Below the pieces are notes generated by a model, which worked only from the letters and a program-made list of their open reading frames with translations, was not told where the DNA came from and did not search any database. A DNA stretch of 64,000 nt, from the NCBI GenBank assembly GCA_048939995.1, contig JBHLOY010000001.1, positions 471,265 to 535,264 on the forward strand. Reading direction: 5' to 3'. A program made the position numbers and the translations under genes. How positions within the stretch are numbered: position 1 is the first letter of the stretch; each line of letters opens with the position of its first letter. Shown one piece after another: positions 16,572-28,329 of the stretch. The DNA is from Promethearchaeota archaeon. Its GTDB lineage: Archaea > Asgardarchaeota > Lokiarchaeia > Sigyniarchaeales > SOKP01.

Positions 16572-17600
16572 ATGATTGAGAAAATTATTGTGTTTGGAGG
16601 CAAAGGTGGGGTTGGAAAAAGTTCAATTAGCGCAGCAACTGCTGTTAGACTATCAGAATTACTCCCTGGAAAAAGAATTTTATTAATTTCATTTGATATA
16701 GCTCATAATCTATCGGATATTTTTGGAACGTCTATAAATAGTGAAATATCCCCAATTACGGCTAACTTGTGGGCGATTGAACCGGATCCAGATCTGTATG
16801 CTGAAGTATATACAAAGGATTTAGTAGAAAAAATGAAAACTTTGACAAAGCAAATGCCCATAATTGGAAGTTTACCCCAGATTGATAAGTTTATTAATAC
16901 AACTTTTACGTCTGATTCCATCCCACTAGCTTTAAAAAATGCAATGTTTTTCCAGAAATTACTAGATGCTGAAGATATCAATACTCAAGACATCCATTTT
17001 GATATTATTGTAGCGGATTTTCCTCCTACAGGAAATATGGTTGCCCTTTTTGAAATTCCTGAAGATCAAGTAAAAGTTGTTCTTAAATATTCTTTAAATT
17101 TTTATAATTCAATCAAGAGCGCAATTAGGAATCTGTCGAAAATGTTTAGACAAATAATTAAACCATTTGATAATGGGACTTATGAAATGAGAAGGGAATT
17201 GGGAAAAGATATATTCAATATGATTGTAGAACTTGAAAAAAGAGGAGAGAGAATAAGTGAATTAATTCATAAAGTAGGATCCTTAAGATTAGTAACAATT
17301 GCAGAGCGTCCTAGTTTTGAAGAAGTAAAAAGAGCACGCGATTTGACCAAAAGATATATTTCCCTCCATGCAGTTCATATAAATATGATTACCCCTAAAG
17401 CGAAACGATGTGAATTTTGTAATATATTACGAGAAAATCAGCTAAAATTTATCGCAGAAATTAAAGAAGAATTTAAAAATATAAAAATTTGGGAATCAAA
17501 TCGTCTTATTGAGGAACCAATTGGAATAGAAGGAATTAAAAAGTTAGCAGTAGAAATATATGGATCTGCCATAGCAGATGATATACTAAATCCAATTTAA
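16572..17600 (+). CDS. ArsA/Get3 (TRC40)-family ATPase
   Basis: GGKGGVGKSS, D.AHNLSD and DFPPTG motifs; C-terminal CEFC. Confidence 0.88.
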   Translation: MIEKIIVFGGKGGVGKSSISAATAVRLSELLPGKRILLISFDIAHNLSDIFGTSINSEISPITANLWAIEPDPDLYAEVYTKDLVEKMKTLTKQMPIIGSLPQIDKFINTTFTSDSIPLALKNAMFFQKLLDAEDINTQDIHFDIIVADFPPTGNMVALFEIPEDQVKVVLKYSLNFYNSIKSAIRNLSKMFRQIIKPFDNGTYEMRRELGKDIFNMIVELEKRGERISELIHKVGSLRLVTIAERPSFEEVKRARDLTKRYISLHAVHINMITPKAKRCEFCNILRENQLKFIAEIKEEFKNIKIWESNRLIEEPIGIEGIKKLAVEIYGSAIADDILNPI

Positions 17601-19936: not shown

Positions 19937-21214
19937 TTAGGTGCCTTCTTCGTAGCCATGGATGTAGTTATATTGTTCCTCGGTTAGTTTATCTATCTCA
20001 ACGCCCATTGACTGAAGCTTTAGAAAGCCTACTCTATTGTCAATCTCGACAGGTACATCAACCATACCTGGTTTTAATGAGCCTCTGTTTTTGACGATAT
20101 ATTCAGACATTAAGGATTGAAGACCGAACGACATATCCATTACTTCAGCAGGATGCCCTTCGGAGAGCACTAAATTAGCTAATCTTCCCTTAGCAAGTAA
20201 ATAAATTCTTTTATCATCAGGAAAAGTGATTTCTTCGACGTTACTTCTTATTGGCTTGATTTCTTTAGCGTATTCATAAATTTCCTTAGTTGGAATCTCA
20301 ATGTCAAAATGTCCTAGATTACCTAAAATGACTCCATCTTTAAGAGCATCGAAGTTTTCTTTTGTAGGTAATATCACATGTTTGCATCCCGTCGCAGTTA
20401 AAATGATATCTGCGATGGGTAAAGCCTCTGAAATAGGCATAACTTGGTATCCTGCAAATTTAGCTTGGAGTGCTTTAATCGGATCAATCTCAGTAACGAT
20501 TACATTTGCACCCAAACCACGTGCTCTCAATGCCATCCCGCTACTGCAATGACCGAATCCTGCCACGATAACATTCTTACCAGCAAATAAAACGTGCATT
20601 CCATAAATTGCGGCTACGATGCCTTGCCCAGTTCCTAATTCATTGTCAAACTGATTTTTGCATCTCGCGTCGTTTACTGGGAAGAGTGGTACTTTTAAGT
20701 CCCCCCCTTTGTCCATTGCTCTAAATCGCTTAACTCCAGTTGTAGTTTCTTCTTGACAGCCAATAATAATCCCTTCAGTGATCAACTCGGGAAATTCTTT
20801 ATGTGCGGTTACTATCATATCTGCTCCATCATCAATCAAAATATTAGGTTTAGCACCTAAACATTGTCGAATGCACCAATAGAATTCCTCATCAGTATTT
20901 CCGTGCCAAGCAAATACGTTTATACCTTCTTTTACCAATGCAGCTGCTACATCATCCTGAGTTGATAAGGGATTACTACCGCATAGATAAACTTCAGCGC
21001 CTCCTGCTTTAAGAGTCCTTGCTAAATTTCCAGTTTCTTTAGTTATGTGTAAACATCCTGCAATTATTATACCTTCCAAGGGTTTTTCCTTTTGAAACCT
21101 TTCACGAATTACCTTAGCAGTGATAGGCATTTTACTTTCTGCTATATATAGTGCTTCCATCCCTTGATCAGCTAAATTTTCATCTGCAACTTTATAATTT
21201 ACCATTTTAGTCAC
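19937..21214 (-). CDS. ahcY: adenosylhomocysteinase (divergent)
   Basis: CLH, SNPLSTQDD, DDGAD, EETTTG, GHFD and GHPAEVMDMSF motifs. Confidence 0.93.
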   Translation of the reverse strand: MTKMVNYKVADENLADQGMEALYIAESKMPITAKVIRERFQKEKPLEGIIIAGCLHITKETGNLARTLKAGGAEVYLCGSNPLSTQDDVAAALVKEGINVFAWHGNTDEEFYWCIRQCLGAKPNILIDDGADMIVTAHKEFPELITEGIIIGCQEETTTGVKRFRAMDKGGDLKVPLFPVNDARCKNQFDNELGTGQGIVAAIYGMHVLFAGKNVIVAGFGHCSSGMALRARGLGANVIVTEIDPIKALQAKFAGYQVMPISEALPIADIILTATGCKHVILPTKENFDALKDGVILGNLGHFDIEIPTKEIYEYAKEIKPIRSNVEEITFPDDKRIYLLAKGRLANLVLSEGHPAEVMDMSFGLQSLMSEYIVKNRGSLKPGMVDVPVEIDNRVGFLKLQSMGVEIDKLTEEQYNYIHGYEEGT

Positions 21215-21342
21215 TTAAATATATGTATGAATATTAATTTTAATTAATTAATAAACCTTTTTTTGGTTGAGTGCAAATATTTTTATAAATAAGTTTACAT
21301 TTAATTAATAATAATCACATAATTTTGTAATATTGTAATTAT

Positions 21343-22626
21343 ATGAGTATAGATAAAAAACTAAAAGAAATCCAAAAATTTATAAAAAATTTAAATGGAA
21401 AGACCAAGTTCATTGTATCACAAAATTCACATGCGTTAGGACTATCTAGACAGACTTATCAAAACAAACTTGATAGTTTGAGAGAGCAGAAAATAATTAC
21501 TAATTTCACAATAAACATTAATCCAGATATTCATCCCAACAACTTGAAGTATGTAATGCTTGAAATTAAAACTAACCCAAAAGAACCTGAGCTGGTTAAG
21601 GAACTATTAGAAATACCCCAGTTAAGAATGTTGGATGGAATAATTGGAGATTTCTCCTTATTCTCCTTGTTTATCTTTAAATCCCCTGAAGAATATTTTC
21701 AGATATTAAATAAAATAGATAATATAATGGCAAAATCATACTTTAAAAAATATAAAATAATTGAAACTATAAAGGTATATAAGACAAATGGAATTAGCTT
21801 AAGAAAATCTAAAGTGTCTTATGAAGAAGAACTCGTGGAAAAATTAAATCATAAGTTTCAAAATCAAGATGTTGATGAAAATGATAAGGTAATTGTTAAG
21901 ATGTCAGAAAAAGTTGATTTAAATGAAATTGCTAAAAAAATGCAGAATATTGAGTACGATCCTAAGAGATTTCCGGGCCTTATTATAAAGATAGTAAATA
22001 GTAGTATTAAAGTTATACTTTTCTCAAATGGGAAAATAATTATCACTGGTTTAAAGAATGCCGCAAATGTAACTCAAATAATCAATAAAATAATTGAAAG
22101 CATAAAAAAAACTGGAATAAGTTTAGATAAGAAAAATTTTGACTTAAATTATGAGATTGATGATATTGATTATACAATTTTAACCATTTTGCGAGATAAT
22201 CAAGGTCCTAAACCAATATCCACCTATGAAATAAGTAGATTTTTTAAAGATCGATACAAAACAGAAATTTCTCAATCAACTATTCATAATAGAGTGAAAA
22301 AATTAGAAAAAAAAGGAGTTATTTTAAATTATGCAATAAATTTTTGTCCAAAAAAAATCGGTTTTGAAGGAAAATATCTCCTTCGAATAAAACCAAAAGA
22401 TCCATCAAAATATAATGAACTCGCCCTCAAACTAGATATGAATAAATATATTACTGATTTATTTAGAATAGGTGAGCAATTTGGTTTATTTGCTATTGTC
22501 AGAGTAGAAAAAATTGAAGAATATGCGAGGTTTATTAAGGATTTATACACGTCAGAAGAAATTGAAGATACCTTTACAAATTTTGTTTTAGACGAATTAA
22601 TTACCTGTAATAATTTTGTGTTATAG
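21343..22626 (+). CDS. tandem Lrp/AsnC-family regulator with an embedded TBP-like repeat
   Basis: Two wHTH+RAM modules flanking VDLNEIA..IEYDPKRFPGLIIK..VILFSNGKIIITG. Confidence 0.8.
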   Translation: MSIDKKLKEIQKFIKNLNGKTKFIVSQNSHALGLSRQTYQNKLDSLREQKIITNFTININPDIHPNNLKYVMLEIKTNPKEPELVKELLEIPQLRMLDGIIGDFSLFSLFIFKSPEEYFQILNKIDNIMAKSYFKKYKIIETIKVYKTNGISLRKSKVSYEEELVEKLNHKFQNQDVDENDKVIVKMSEKVDLNEIAKKMQNIEYDPKRFPGLIIKIVNSSIKVILFSNGKIIITGLKNAANVTQIINKIIESIKKTGISLDKKNFDLNYEIDDIDYTILTILRDNQGPKPISTYEISRFFKDRYKTEISQSTIHNRVKKLEKKGVILNYAINFCPKKIGFEGKYLLRIKPKDPSKYNELALKLDMNKYITDLFRIGEQFGLFAIVRVEKIEEYARFIKDLYTSEEIEDTFTNFVLDELITCNNFVL

Positions 22627-22701
22627 AGAATAATCCTAATCCCAAGGATTGAAAAAAATATTAATTTAATTACTTTAGAATCATTTCTTTATTTGTAGAC
22701 A

Positions 22702-24780
22702 ATGACTCATTTTTATGAGATATTAAATAAAAAGATCGGTTACTCTAGAATAGGTAGAATTATTTTATCGAAGGATTCTAAGAAGTATGTAAAGACACCT
22801 AATGTTATAATTCCTATGCGAAACTTTTTGATGAAAAATGTAAATTACTTAGATGAATTTGAGGATCATGAAGTCTTTATAATATCAAAAGAAGTTTTTC
22901 TAAAAATTGGTTTTTTTAGAGAAAAATTTAGAAATACTGCTTTTATTTTCACTCACATGGGTACATTAGATACATTTATAGAGATTATTGAAAAAAATAT
23001 TAATGCCTTCTCTAAAGACAATATTATACTGTTAATTCCATTTAATATCCCTACAAGTAGTATTAGCGAAACCTTTACAAGACATGAGATTGAACACTAT
23101 CTTGAATCTGTACGCAATCTTTTACAGAAGTATCAAGAACTCAATTTTGGGTTGTCCATTAAAATTTTTGAATCGCCAGCATTATTCGATCTATATAAAG
23201 AGTTAATAGTAGAAAATAAAAACATTAAGCTATTAAATATAGCTGACTTTTTTGATGTCAATATTAATTTTAGAAAGATTGTAGAACAAATTGTAGATGT
23301 CAAACAAAATCTTGATAATAATTTAGTTTTAATGGCTTCAGGACGAATTATTCCAAAGTATTTCCCGATTTTAGTTTACCTCGGCATTGATCTTATTGAT
23401 AGTTCTTACTTATTATATTTATCATCAGAAAATTTTTATGATACAATCGAGTATCTCTATCCCATTTATAAAGTAAGCTATTTTCCATGTTCATGTTTTG
23501 CATGTAAAGATAAGTTAAAAAACATACAAAGCGCTAAATATTCAATTGAAAAGCTAGATTACTTATGTCTTCATAATCTAATAACCGCGAAAAATTACAT
23601 GAATAAGACAAGGCAGTATTTAAAAGCAGATGACTTTCGAGCATTTGTGGAAAAATCTTCCTTTGATGATATTCTTATCATTTCGATTCTAAAGATATTA
23701 GATCGTCAATATTTTAATTTAATAAGGTTTGAAACACCAATCGCAGAAAGTTTTTCAACCATTAAATGTTTTGGTCCGTCTTCTTATTATCGACCTGATT
23801 TTCAACAATTTAGAGAGAGAGTGATTCAGCATTTTTTACCCGAACCATGGACAAAGTTGATCATCATTTTACCTTGTTCTTCAAAAAAGCCCTATTCTAA
23901 ATCGAAATCTCATAAAAAATTTCAAAGTGTTTTAAGAAAATTCGCGGATTTTCCTGACTTTCAAGAAATCATATTAACCTCACCTCTTGGAGCTATTCCA
24001 AGACAATTAGAAAATATTTATCCTGTAAATTCATATGATATCTCTGTGACTGGTTATTGGGACCATGAAGAGATCAAATTAGCTTCTGAAATGTTAATAC
24101 AGATTTTAAAGAAGTATAACCAAAATATTCCAATTATATGTCATACAAAAGAGAAGGGATATAAAGATATTATCTTGAAAGCAAAATCCCAATTGCCTCA
24201 TAAATTTTATTTTACTGATGTAAATGGGAGTCTGATCAGTTTTAGCTCATTAAAGTCGCTTGAAGATAATGTTAGAAACTTGAAAGCTAATATAGAACTA
24301 GAAGATAAACCTAGCGAAATCCTCTTCTCAAAAACATGGATCCGAAAATTAAATAAGATCACCGACTATCAATTTGGCCCTAATGTGGGAAAAAGTGTTT
24401 TTTCAAAGGAAGTAAAGGTTAAAAAAGATAAACATAATGGGAATCTTAACATAATTAATAATAAAAACAATAAATTAATTGGAAAGTTTTTAAGTAAAAC
24501 TGGTCAGATTGAATTTACTTTATATGGAGCAGAATTAATATTAGAAAGTAGGATAAACTCAAACATCTTAGTTTTCAATGGAGATATAATAAAGGGAAAT
24601 ACCATTTTTAGACCAGGAATTATTGAATTCAGTTCTAATCTTATACCAAATAATTATGCCTTGATATTAGATCAGACAAAGGATAGAGTTATTGGGCTAG
24701 CTAAATTAATAATCGGTTCAAATTATTTAAAAAACTCAAAAAGCGGGAGGGTTGCTACAGTTTATGATAAAATCAGATGA
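22702..24780 (+). CDS. arcS: archaeosine synthase subunit ArcS (TGT-like + PUA)
   Basis: SRIGRI..TP, YLGIDLIDS, LPCSSKKPYSKSKSH, TSPLG.IPR.LE and YD..VTG.W motifs; C-terminal PUA. Confidence 0.88.
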   Translation: MTHFYEILNKKIGYSRIGRIILSKDSKKYVKTPNVIIPMRNFLMKNVNYLDEFEDHEVFIISKEVFLKIGFFREKFRNTAFIFTHMGTLDTFIEIIEKNINAFSKDNIILLIPFNIPTSSISETFTRHEIEHYLESVRNLLQKYQELNFGLSIKIFESPALFDLYKELIVENKNIKLLNIADFFDVNINFRKIVEQIVDVKQNLDNNLVLMASGRIIPKYFPILVYLGIDLIDSSYLLYLSSENFYDTIEYLYPIYKVSYFPCSCFACKDKLKNIQSAKYSIEKLDYLCLHNLITAKNYMNKTRQYLKADDFRAFVEKSSFDDILIISILKILDRQYFNLIRFETPIAESFSTIKCFGPSSYYRPDFQQFRERVIQHFLPEPWTKLIIILPCSSKKPYSKSKSHKKFQSVLRKFADFPDFQEIILTSPLGAIPRQLENIYPVNSYDISVTGYWDHEEIKLASEMLIQILKKYNQNIPIICHTKEKGYKDIILKAKSQLPHKFYFTDVNGSLISFSSLKSLEDNVRNLKANIELEDKPSEILFSKTWIRKLNKITDYQFGPNVGKSVFSKEVKVKKDKHNGNLNIINNKNNKLIGKFLSKTGQIEFTLYGAELILESRINSNILVFNGDIIKGNTIFRPGIIEFSSNLIPNNYALILDQTKDRVIGLAKLIIGSNYLKNSKSGRVATVYDKIR

Positions 24781-26261: not shown

Positions 26262-27203
26262 TTGAATGAGCTTAAGAAAAAGCAAATCGACATTGATGAT
26301 GAGATTTGTACCGAATGTGGAAAAAAAATTATAAAGAATGTTGAATCTTTATTAGTTTGTGAGGAATGTGGCTTAGTCCATTCAGATAATCATATTGATC
26401 GTGGTCCCGAATGGAGAGCTTTCGATGCTGATCAAAAGAAGAAGAGAACTAGAACTGGAGCACCGATGACTTACATGATACACGATAAGGGTTTAAGTAC
26501 AATGATTGATTGGAAAAATAGAGATATTTTTGGGAAGGAAATTCCTGCTAAGTCAAGAGGGCAAATATATAGACTGCGTAAATGGCAAAGTCGAATAAGA
26601 GTATCAGATGCTACAGAAAGAAACTTGACTTTTGCATTAAGTGAGTTAGATCGTATGGCTTCTAACTTAGATCTGCCCAAAAATCTTCGTGAATGTTCTG
26701 CAAAAATATATAGAGATGCTGTTGATGCACATCTTATCAGAGGAAGGAGTATTGAAGGTGTAGCTGCTGCAAGTTTATATGCGGCATGCAGAATGTATAA
26801 AATACCTAGAACCCTTAATGAAATTGCTGAAGTAGCGCGTGTTGATAAAAAAGAAATTGGTAGATCATTCCGTTTTATATCAAATGAGTTAATCCTCAAT
26901 TTAAATCCAACTAAACCACTTGATTTTCTCACAAGGTTTATATCTGAATTAAAGCTTACTCAAGATTGTCAAAAAGTCGCTAAAAAAATTATAAAAATAG
27001 CAGAAGCATATGGATTAACTTCAGGTAGAGGACCAACGGGAGTGTGTGCTGCAGCTATATATGCAGCTAGTATTTTAACTAAGGAGAGGAGAACTCAGAG
27101 AAAAATAGCAAATATAAGTCAAGTTACTGAAGTCACAGTTAGAAATAGATTCTCAGAATTAATAGAAAATTTAGATTTAGGTATTTCAATAAAGAAGAAG
27201 TAA
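26262..27203 (+). CDS. tfb: transcription initiation factor TFB
   Basis: Zn ribbon, GPEWRAF, HDKGLST, RGRSIEG and VTEVTVRNR motifs. Confidence 0.97.
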
Positions 27204-27318: not shown

Positions 27319-27678
27319 TTGGATTTTATGAAAATGGAGAATACTAGGTTAATTAATCAAAACGAGGTTAATTATTTTCTTCATAGAGTAAGACGACACT
27401 TCCCTAATTTTGTAGCAGGAGTAATTACAGACCGAAATGGGTTTCCTATTGGTTCAAGTATATCGAATAGACTATGGGTTCATGAAAATACTTTAGCCAT
27501 TTGGGCAATATCGAAAAACAAGGAAAGAATTATAAAAGATCCAAACCTGATCCAATTAAAGTTTGATATCGATAAAAACAAGAGATATAAGCTATTTATA
27601 TTATTAGAGAAAACAAAGACTTATAAAAATGGAATAAAGCCATTAAAAGAAATTATTAAAACACAAGAATTATTTTAG
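27319..27678 (+). CDS. divergent roadblock-like protein
   Basis: AGVITDRNGFPIGS motif; adjacent to a clearer roadblock gene. Confidence 0.5.
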   Translation: MDFMKMENTRLINQNEVNYFLHRVRRHFPNFVAGVITDRNGFPIGSSISNRLWVHENTLAIWAISKNKERIIKDPNLIQLKFDIDKNKRYKLFILLEKTKTYKNGIKPLKEIIKTQELF

Positions 27679-27858
27679 AGCATTAAAAAGAGTCATTCTC
27701 AACTTTATTAGTTTTATTCATAGCGTAAGACTGATTAAAAATAAAGGAATTAAGTTTTTATAGTATTAGTTTTATTTTTATTCATAAATAATAAAAAAGA
27801 ATGAACAAGATATTATTTGAATTTATTTTAAACCTAAAAAAAACTGAGGTTTGAGTTA

Positions 27859-28329
27859 TTGAATTATTCTCAAGATGAAATGGAATTAAAGAAAATTATT
27901 AGAGAGATAATCAATAGCACACCCGGTTTAAAAAATGTAATTCTTATTGATGATACAGGTATTACAATAATGTATGAGGCTAAGTTTACCTTCTTAAGTG
28001 AAGAAGATATTTCAGTTGAAAAAATAGGGGCTATAGGTGGTGCTGTTTTCACAGCTGGAGAAGAACAAGGGCATATATTAGGTTATGGAGAAATTAATCT
28101 CCAAATAACAGAGTATCACAAGGGGATGATTTTTTCAATGAAAGTAGGTAAGGGAATCCTCTGCATTGCCTCAGATAAAAACGTACAAATAGGTTATGTT
28201 CGTGCGATCATGAAGAGATATGCTCCTCGAATTACTGAGATTTTAGATCACTATTTAAAAGCTGATCAAAACGAGATGAGCAAAGAATTAAAAGAACTAT
28301 TTAATTCAGATACAATAAGTTTAATGTAA
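27859..28329 (+). CDS. roadblock/LC7 domain protein
   Basis: VILIDDTGITI, IGAIGGAVF and QIGYVRAIMK pattern. Confidence 0.8.
   Translation: MNYSQDEMELKKIIREIINSTPGLKNVILIDDTGITIMYEAKFTFLSEEDISVEKIGAIGGAVFTAGEEQGHILGYGEINLQITEYHKGMIFSMKVGKGILCIASDKNVQIGYVRAIMKRYAPRITEILDHYLKADQNEMSKELKELFNSDTISLM

Follow-up and report, generated by a model that had tools for sequence, protein, structure and literature searches.

Does a transcriptional regulator gain anything from carrying half of a TATA-binding protein (TBP)? TBP ranks with the most conserved proteins found in archaea and eukaryotes, and it is viewed as a saddle whose two lobes cannot be separated. Models of TBP origin leave open whether a single lobe could be useful in DNA binding (PMC3597702). 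The gene analyzed here (positions 21343–22626, plus strand) lies in a window of 64,000 nucleotides, the whole stretch of DNA studied, from a Promethearchaeota archaeon of the Lokiarchaeia. Its single uninterrupted ORF codes for a 427-residue regulator in which two Lrp/AsnC modules stand in tandem and a TBP N-terminal repeat is inserted. A sequence-only reading of the locus had recognized a half-TBP between two Lrp modules and had proposed that dimerization could rebuild a TBP-like saddle, giving the regulator its own TATA-binding or TBP-mimic module.

Domain architecture and authenticity of the fusion

All parts of the protein are encoded on the plus strand. Lrp module 1 (21370–21792), composed of an HTH (residues ~10–62) and a RAM domain (residues 63–150), is followed by an acidic amphipathic helix with a spacer (residues 155–180; 21805–21882), the half-TBP (residues 181–261; 21883–22125) and Lrp module 2 (22156–22623; HTH, residues 272–336; RAM, residues 337–427). 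The half-TBP corresponds to the N-terminal repeat of the host TBP from the middle of strand 1 to the GIxL motif past helix 2. The peptide quoted in the sequence-only reading comprises residues 190–259 (21910–22119), and the start given there, 21886, falls on K182 within the remnant of strand 1. In Pfam, PF00352 matched residues 185–256 as one repeat (E = 6.6e-19; 68 bits against a cut-off of 22.9). The best PDB sequence match of the fusion was M. jannaschii TBP (2z8u, E = 2.9e-25), archaeal Lrp proteins ranking after the TBPs; on these grounds a chance match was rejected. Module 2 was above Pfam cut-offs (AsnC_trans_reg and HTH_24). Module 1 was more divergent from the Pfam models (PDB 2dbb, E = 0.014) and formed the second stretch matching NCBIfam Lrp models.

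AlphaFold2, run with a 71-row alignment, resolved the half-TBP best of all stretches, in the order strand-helix-four strands-helix (pLDDT about 85; 78–88 by block). The helix-grip fold of five strands and two helices was present with a shortened strand 1, and the overall arrangement of the modules was uncertain (pTM 0.47); prediction from the single sequence was unusable (pLDDT 34). Foldseek matched the half-TBP model to TBP chains over 82–88 columns with rmsd of 3.4–3.8 Å. Profile search, fold model and structure comparison thus all agreed with the earlier proposal that a TBP-repeat domain, in both sequence and fold, lies between two Lrp modules. The fusion has one such stretch, whereas canonical TBP has two repeats. 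An ordinary two-repeat TBP, the only full one in this genome, is encoded on another contig (G000:C37, P0121). Many other Lokiarchaeia (G009–G021, G023, G053 and G093) had 2–5 full TBP paralogues, some in tandem and some very divergent, and the representative library also held two four-TBP-repeat proteins, P0122 (376 aa) and P0181 (702 aa), possibly read-through or assembly fusions.

The acidic helix ahead of the lobe was present in approximately 57 of 75 inserts. It could close off the exposed edge of the sheet or, like TAF1 TAND1, cover the DNA face. An assembly chimera, the main doubt about such an architecture, was rejected: about 90 clusters (NCBI, JGI, ENA and Logan) contained the set of Lrp and TBP Pfam domains, the fusion was present in 37 genomes, and one contig from an independent study covered 20800–23200 unbroken.

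Origin and history of the insert

All 34 inserts compared scored higher against the N-repeat of the host TBP than against its C-repeat. In a repeat tree rooted on C-repeats every half-TBP grouped with N-repeats (support 100/100); with only 83 columns, the fine structure of this tree is weak. The C-terminal repeat was rejected as the source of the lobe on both lines of evidence. In the window, 37 of 79 positions (47%) were identical between half-TBP and host N-repeat in a local alignment.

Among the best 120 homologous clusters, about 90 had the insert and about 30 were insert-less orthologues of 318–324 aa; the homologues carried the names Promethearchaeota or Lokiarchaeia. Among 400 genomes of the phylum, the full fusion was found in the window's Lokiarchaeia family alone, where it occurred in 37 of 135 genomes distributed over five genus codes. 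In a search of 50% representatives, where ordinary TBPs dominated the matches, P0136 and P0201 looked like fragments of the Lrp-TBP fusion. A search for longer proteins (749–2135 aa) with a half-TBP domain found none, which is weak evidence, and ESM Atlas gave no match above 0.8 and no TBP-fusion cluster.

A tree of the Lrp parts only was built from 64 rows, leaving out 17 insert-less loci missed by the motif parser. All 34 insert-bearing proteins fell in one 42-row clade (99/85) nested among insert-less proteins, and eight insert-less proteins were found inside a 98/97 subclade of it. An unbroken clade of insert-bearing Lrps was rejected by the AU test (p = 0.0007; the trait had been used to define the group ahead of tree building). 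The nested insert-less proteins also bear scars of the insert's first residues, in frame and with three different breakpoints; at one loss junction S-F-E is joined to N-F-E at a TTTGA microhomology. Because of the AU rejection and these scars, we read the nested insert-less proteins as secondary losses, and the simplest reading of the sequences is one gain followed by at least three losses. The basal inserts L028 and L031, loosely placed in the domain tree, could be separate gains. Genus codes g1 and g12 were repeatedly mixed in the Lrp tree (L004–L083), a pattern that suggests gene exchange at the Lrp locus or broad genera.

The junctions indicate the direction of change. Outgroup linkers read GIEL and then continue directly into the Lrp linker, and insert-bearing proteins read GISL, insert, GIKL and Lrp linker. 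Since the host TBP N-repeat itself ends in GIKL, the 3' junction was probably a crossover in a motif common to both. Such a history would suit a tolerated passenger, that is, a stable piece of TBP placed in a permissive linker by a recombination accident, with no regulatory role and with selection only keeping it folded and in frame until it is deleted. A simple crossover point is available in the GIxL motif, which occurs both in the Lrp linker and where the TBP repeat ends, and the losses, at least three, are clean and have different junctions. However, retention of the insert in 37 genomes of at least five genera speaks against this explanation, which, considered together with the evidence below, we regard as somewhat unlikely.

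Conserved residues and selection in the lobe

Residues were counted in 75 inserts under 85% identity. F210 (21970–21972, plus strand), the equivalent of yeast TBP F99, was invariant (75/75), and F227 (22021–22023, plus strand), the equivalent of F116, was kept in 64 inserts and lost in 11, the two being present together in 64. Both intercalating Phe are therefore present in the window, as had been claimed. The equivalents of R98, R105 and K120, which we take to be basic DNA contacts in TBP, stayed K or R in 96, 85 and 93% of inserts, respectively, compared with a mean of 45% at other basic positions. This set ranked second of 560 triples for basic retention; the K110-equivalent was basic in 16%, and with this position added to the DNA contacts the result is weaker (119 of 1820). 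Both Phe and the three basic residues were jointly intact in 50 of 75 inserts. The leading half of strand 1 was degenerate, with polar or acidic residues in its place; in TBP this half pairs with the first strand of the other repeat across the saddle dyad. For the positions whose roles in TBP are tabulated in PMC12529657 (Table 1: N69, V71, F99, L114, F116, V122 and T124), the central contacts were lost or eroding: the Asn69-equivalent was Asn in 11 of 75 inserts, the Val71-equivalent was Val in none of 75 (the window has Asp178 and Asn180) and the T124-equivalent was Thr in 27 of 75. TFB binds two glutamates specific to TBP's C-terminal lobe (PMC7221094); Glu occupied the first of these positions in 0 of 75 inserts and both positions were acidic in 6 of 75, the window having Asp206 and Lys208.

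These counts bear directly on the possibility that the halves of two chains come together as a symmetric saddle, which would make the protein an activator whose own TBP binds TATA and recruits TFB and RNA polymerase. The inserts preserve both Phe and a large part of the concave face, a few basal inserts (such as L031) retain more of strand 1, and Lrp proteins form dimers of dimers (PMC2995911). However, the lobe is of N-repeat origin, and because the dyad strand has been lost and the TFB-binding glutamates of the C-repeat are absent, a rebuilt TFB-recruiting saddle is unlikely. In addition, the DNA-binding heads of the Lrp octamer face outwards, away from each other (PMC2995911), and the tandem Lrp is probably already a one-chain dimer, which would leave one half-TBP per DNA-binding unit. 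Complex prediction with two copies of residues 155–265 gave a score of 0.02 and the verdict 'no answer', which is evidence neither way.

Rates of dN/dS were estimated by the Nei-Gojobori method in 12 close pairs (10 sister pairs from the tree and 2 from a fork without firm branching). They were 0.065–0.19 in the four Lrp domains, with module 1 strongly conserved (HTH 0.09, RAM 0.065), 0.36 in the half-TBP and 0.50 in the acidic helix. The corresponding values for the real TBP were 0.016 for the N-repeat and 0.006 for the C-repeat, so the half-TBP stood approximately 20-fold above the N-repeat. The half-TBP is maintained by purifying selection yet released from the constraints of TBP. This 20-fold weaker constraint is a further point against a working saddle, and the fact that the half-TBP has the highest rate among the folded domains of the protein is what a passenger would show. 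On the other hand, dN within the lobe was 0.093 in DNA-face codons, 0.089 in the core and 0.164 in the other surface (Fisher p = 0.005; sites not fully independent). Exposed DNA-face residues, among them the invariant Phe and the three basic residues, were under constraint close to that of the core and stronger than on the remaining surface, which argues against a passenger. The conserved exposed sheet face could also reflect packing on the preceding helix or a protein partner.

A partner of this kind is central to another explanation, a protein decoy or docking module that would tune TBP availability at the ahcY/lrp promoter by binding host TBP via the concave face, a TBP-binding regulator, or an Lrp-type factor that otherwise contacts TBP. 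Elsewhere, lobes with the TBP fold act as platforms for protein interaction (PMC3597702), the eukaryotic N-terminal lobe is the regulator-binding lobe (PMC7221094), Lokiarchaeia genomes often have several TBP paralogues, and the domain is preceded by an acidic helix. However, conservation in the lobe is lowest in helix 2 and on the convex surface that faces regulators (the other-surface dN above), and the conserved basic residues of the concave face fit nucleic acid better. Besides, because the host TBP is nearly frozen, a surface mimicking it would have drifted from its model. We consider a decoy or docking role unlikely.

Synteny and promoter region

Divergence of the regulator from ahcY (adenosylhomocysteinase; 19937–21214, minus strand), noted in the sequence-only reading, was found in 81 of 81 loci, with or without the insert. 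Since ahcY is always divergent and the insert is optional, the tandem Lrp beside ahcY appears to be an old conserved unit to which the TBP lobe was added. The regulator had also been said to head an arcS-raSEA-gar1-tfb run. These neighbors are as named and usually lie downstream, but the link is weaker than this wording implies, with other genes intervening between regulator and arcS in about 15 of 81 loci. Among the neighbors, ahcY and raSEA were above NCBIfam cut-offs and gar1 and tfb above Pfam cut-offs; arcS matched ArcS models with E = 6e-91 but remained under the cut-off. Farther out, most orthologous loci have an ArsA/GET3-like ATPase (16572–17600, plus strand) on the far side of ahcY, separated from it by variable cargo genes (DJ-1, luciferase-like), and tfb (26262–27203) was followed in most loci by a 119-aa ORF of no assigned family and a roadblock-domain gene (27319–28329, plus strand, for the two together).

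The GTG start of ahcY given by the ORF caller (21214) probably lies in a GTGA ribosome-binding site (21211–21214), and the conserved start is probably the ATG at 21205. The intergenic region (21206–21342) was highly conserved. On a consensus reading it contains a candidate BRE and TATA box of ahcY (TTTATTAA; 21248–21266, minus strand), conserved in orthologous loci, and a candidate BRE and TATA box of the regulator gene (21273–21288, plus strand), the two candidate BREs being back to back and approximately 6 bp apart. Two copies of a conserved TTTAATTAAT element, 61 bp apart and without assigned strand, are candidate operators by conservation only: copy 1 (21239–21248) is directly downstream of the ahcY TATA box and copy 2 (21300–21309) is downstream of the regulator's TATA box. 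The element occurs 221 times in the window's 29%-GC genome. A sigma-70 scan, irrelevant to an archaeon, was at chance level, and the listing of sequencing runs had no RNA holder.

We found no consistent promoter compensation after loss of the insert in an alignment of six loss rows from two lineages. Because loss lineages keep the same promoter elements, the lobe is not needed to recognize an unusual promoter; promoters unchanged after loss would also be expected of a passenger. With regard to the symmetric saddle, the candidate TATA-side elements are AT palindromes, a point in its favor, but the genome keeps a normal TBP and the BRE/TATA elements are normal whether or not the insert is present. 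Thus, the earlier suggestion that dimerization rebuilds a working saddle is not supported, given the N-repeat origin, the degenerate dyad strand, the approximately 20-fold higher dN/dS, the probable presence of one half per DNA-binding unit and the clean losses, and we regard it as highly improbable. What stands of the suggested TATA-binding or TBP-mimic module is a TBP-like DNA-binding module, to judge by selection on the DNA face.

A proposed tethered minor-groove wedge

The reading that we favor, with a probability of roughly 0.5, is that the half-TBP acts in the minor groove as a wedge, tethered and dispensable, with which the regulator grips or bends AT-rich DNA more readily at the two back-to-back TATA promoters. 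DNA-wedging residues were kept and residues for starting transcription were lost, so the lobe is probably an optional DNA-gripping add-on and not a private TBP. It has been reported that single TBP lobes bind nucleic acid elsewhere, as in RNase HIII (PMC3597702, PMC7221094). The best explanation for the protein as a whole is that it serves this family as a conserved regulator of two divergent promoters, those of ahcY and lrp. The two Lrp modules would fold as a single-chain Lrp dimer, which fits the short linker of insert-less orthologues (the model, with its low pTM, leaves the module arrangement loose), and the two HTHs would provide specificity by reading the conserved AT-rich site beside the TATA boxes. 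The half-TBP, of low specificity, would hang just ahead of the second HTH; its two Phe would kink the DNA and its three basic residues would hold the backbone, adding affinity or bend at flanking T/A-rich DNA.

The wedge may thereby tighten repression of ahcY, of the regulator's own promoter, or of both, either by occupying half of a TATA box or by blocking TBP/TFB/RNAP assembly. In archaea, activators of the Lrp type have their binding site immediately upstream of the BRE (PMC2995911). Both candidate operators here are between TATA and start site, a location that fits repression better than activation and makes tighter repression the likeliest net effect. Stronger repression would follow from the fact that such a lobe could occupy half a TATA box but could not call in TFB, which a half-TBP is predicted to be unable to recruit. 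The effect would be modest enough for deletions to be tolerated; at least three independent in-frame losses without promoter change indicate little need for the lobe. The eroded central contacts and the 11 inserts that lack the F116-equivalent also count against a wedge. Judging by ahcY, the effector of the regulator might be a methionine-cycle amino acid, although this is a guess.

Half-TBPs in other Lokiarchaeia proteins

Unpaired PF00352 matches in 40 related genomes revealed three further recruitments, each a supported clade. In the first, the half-TBP forms the C-terminus of a 320-aa protein whose N-terminus is putatively AbrB-like and whose longin-like central part has a WARG motif, present in at least nine genomes of the window's genus; these two labels are based on motif appearance, with no confirmation in Pfam, PDB or Atlas. 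Examples are L114:3260–4219 and L134:3054–4016 (both plus strand), as well as L135–L141. The lobe's dN/dS in this family was 0.15. The window's genome has an orthologue without half-TBP (L154:1423–2145, minus strand; G000:C11 near 147000). Optional presence in this longin-type family too is compatible with a passenger. Several of the 320-aa half-TBP proteins sit in a lineage whose Lrp is without insert. In the second recruitment, the half-TBP is N-terminal on a Ras-family GTPase-wHTH protein of 507–515 aa, found in three genomes and six protein-database clusters (L115:2777–4300, minus strand; L142:4382–5920 and L143:4875–6419, plus strand), possibly a GTP-switched transcription factor. The third comprises half-TBPs that stand alone as proteins of about 120 aa and also contain the second repeat's first strand (L116:3682–4038 and L145:3847–4206, both minus strand).

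The Phe pair was kept in most half-TBPs of the Ras-wHTH and AbrB-like fusions, and the stand-alone copy of L116 was without the F99-equivalent. Most fused lobes begin midway through strand 1 or stop shortly after the second repeat's first strand has begun, within a few residues, boundaries that may define a self-capping structural unit. All four recruitments took the N-repeat and never the C-repeat, contrary to what a mere passenger would suggest. It is conceivable, and we put it forward tentatively, that the N-half of TBP is a mobile regulatory module in this Lokiarchaeia family (on Lrp, Ras-GTPase-wHTH and AbrB-like/longin-like proteins, and stand-alone), each copy being a half-TBP that would occupy or pre-bend half of a TATA box without TFB and thus give gene-specific, signal-controlled competition with, or hand-over to, TBP.

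Comparison with known systems and significance

The lobe resembles archaeal TBP (M. jannaschii 2z8u, P. woesei 1ais) in fold, in its F99 and F116 equivalents and in most of the concave face; it differs in being one embedded repeat that lacks the dyad half of strand 1 and the TFB glutamates and evolves approximately 20-fold faster. Similarly, the protein shares with archaeal Lrp/AsnC regulators (FFRPs) such as FL11/PH1519 (2e1c), LrpA (1i1g) and Ptr2 the HTH and RAM domains, a divergent metabolic gene and candidate AT-rich sites about six helical turns apart, but has two modules per chain and a covalent TBP lobe. Ptr2 acts through TBP (PMC2995911); however, its partner is a free TBP with two repeats, reached from a site upstream of the BRE, whereas the candidate sites of the fusion are downstream of the TATA boxes.

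Single-TBP-domain proteins described by Brindefalk et al. 2013 (PMC3597702) include halobacterial TbpA, monopartite euryarchaeal proteins, the N-domain of RNase HIII and a rare wHTH+TBP-domain protein, Q8TJ64_METAC. As in the fusion, one lobe occurs alone or joined to a nucleic-acid-binding domain, but no Lrp fusion is among them (0 occurrences of 'Lrp' in PMC3597702), and the lobe studied here is a recent, traceable copy of the host N-repeat whose gain and losses can be placed on a tree. The herpesviral TBP mimic ORF24 (PMC12529657) likewise combines a TBP-derived DNA face and Phe pairs with absence of TFIIB-binding acidic residues, and is joined to other DNA-binding parts. However, ORF24 is an essential protein with two lobes that recruits polymerase on its own, whereas the fusion has one optional lobe and no sign of polymerase recruitment. 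No description of a fusion of Lrp/AsnC with a TBP domain, lobe or repeat, from Asgard archaea or otherwise, nor of repeated N-lobe recruitment in Lokiarchaeia, was found in the searchable literature, most subscription papers being outside it. Single TBP lobes in fusion proteins were already known, and the Lrp-TBP-Lrp architecture appears new within that literature.

The Lrp fusion is confined to one family and is dispensable. Nevertheless, the locus is a natural experiment, with orthologues that have the lobe, precede its gain or follow its loss at one conserved promoter. Because such orthologues exist (those compared are ~85% identical in their Lrp parts), the function of the half-TBP is directly testable with purified proteins. 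Parts of the Asgard basal machinery have been recycled into sequence-specific regulators four times, always by way of the lobe that does not bind TFB. If the half-TBP is indeed a mobile module, this would represent a prokaryotic route to TBP-derived regulators in the sister lineage of eukaryotes.
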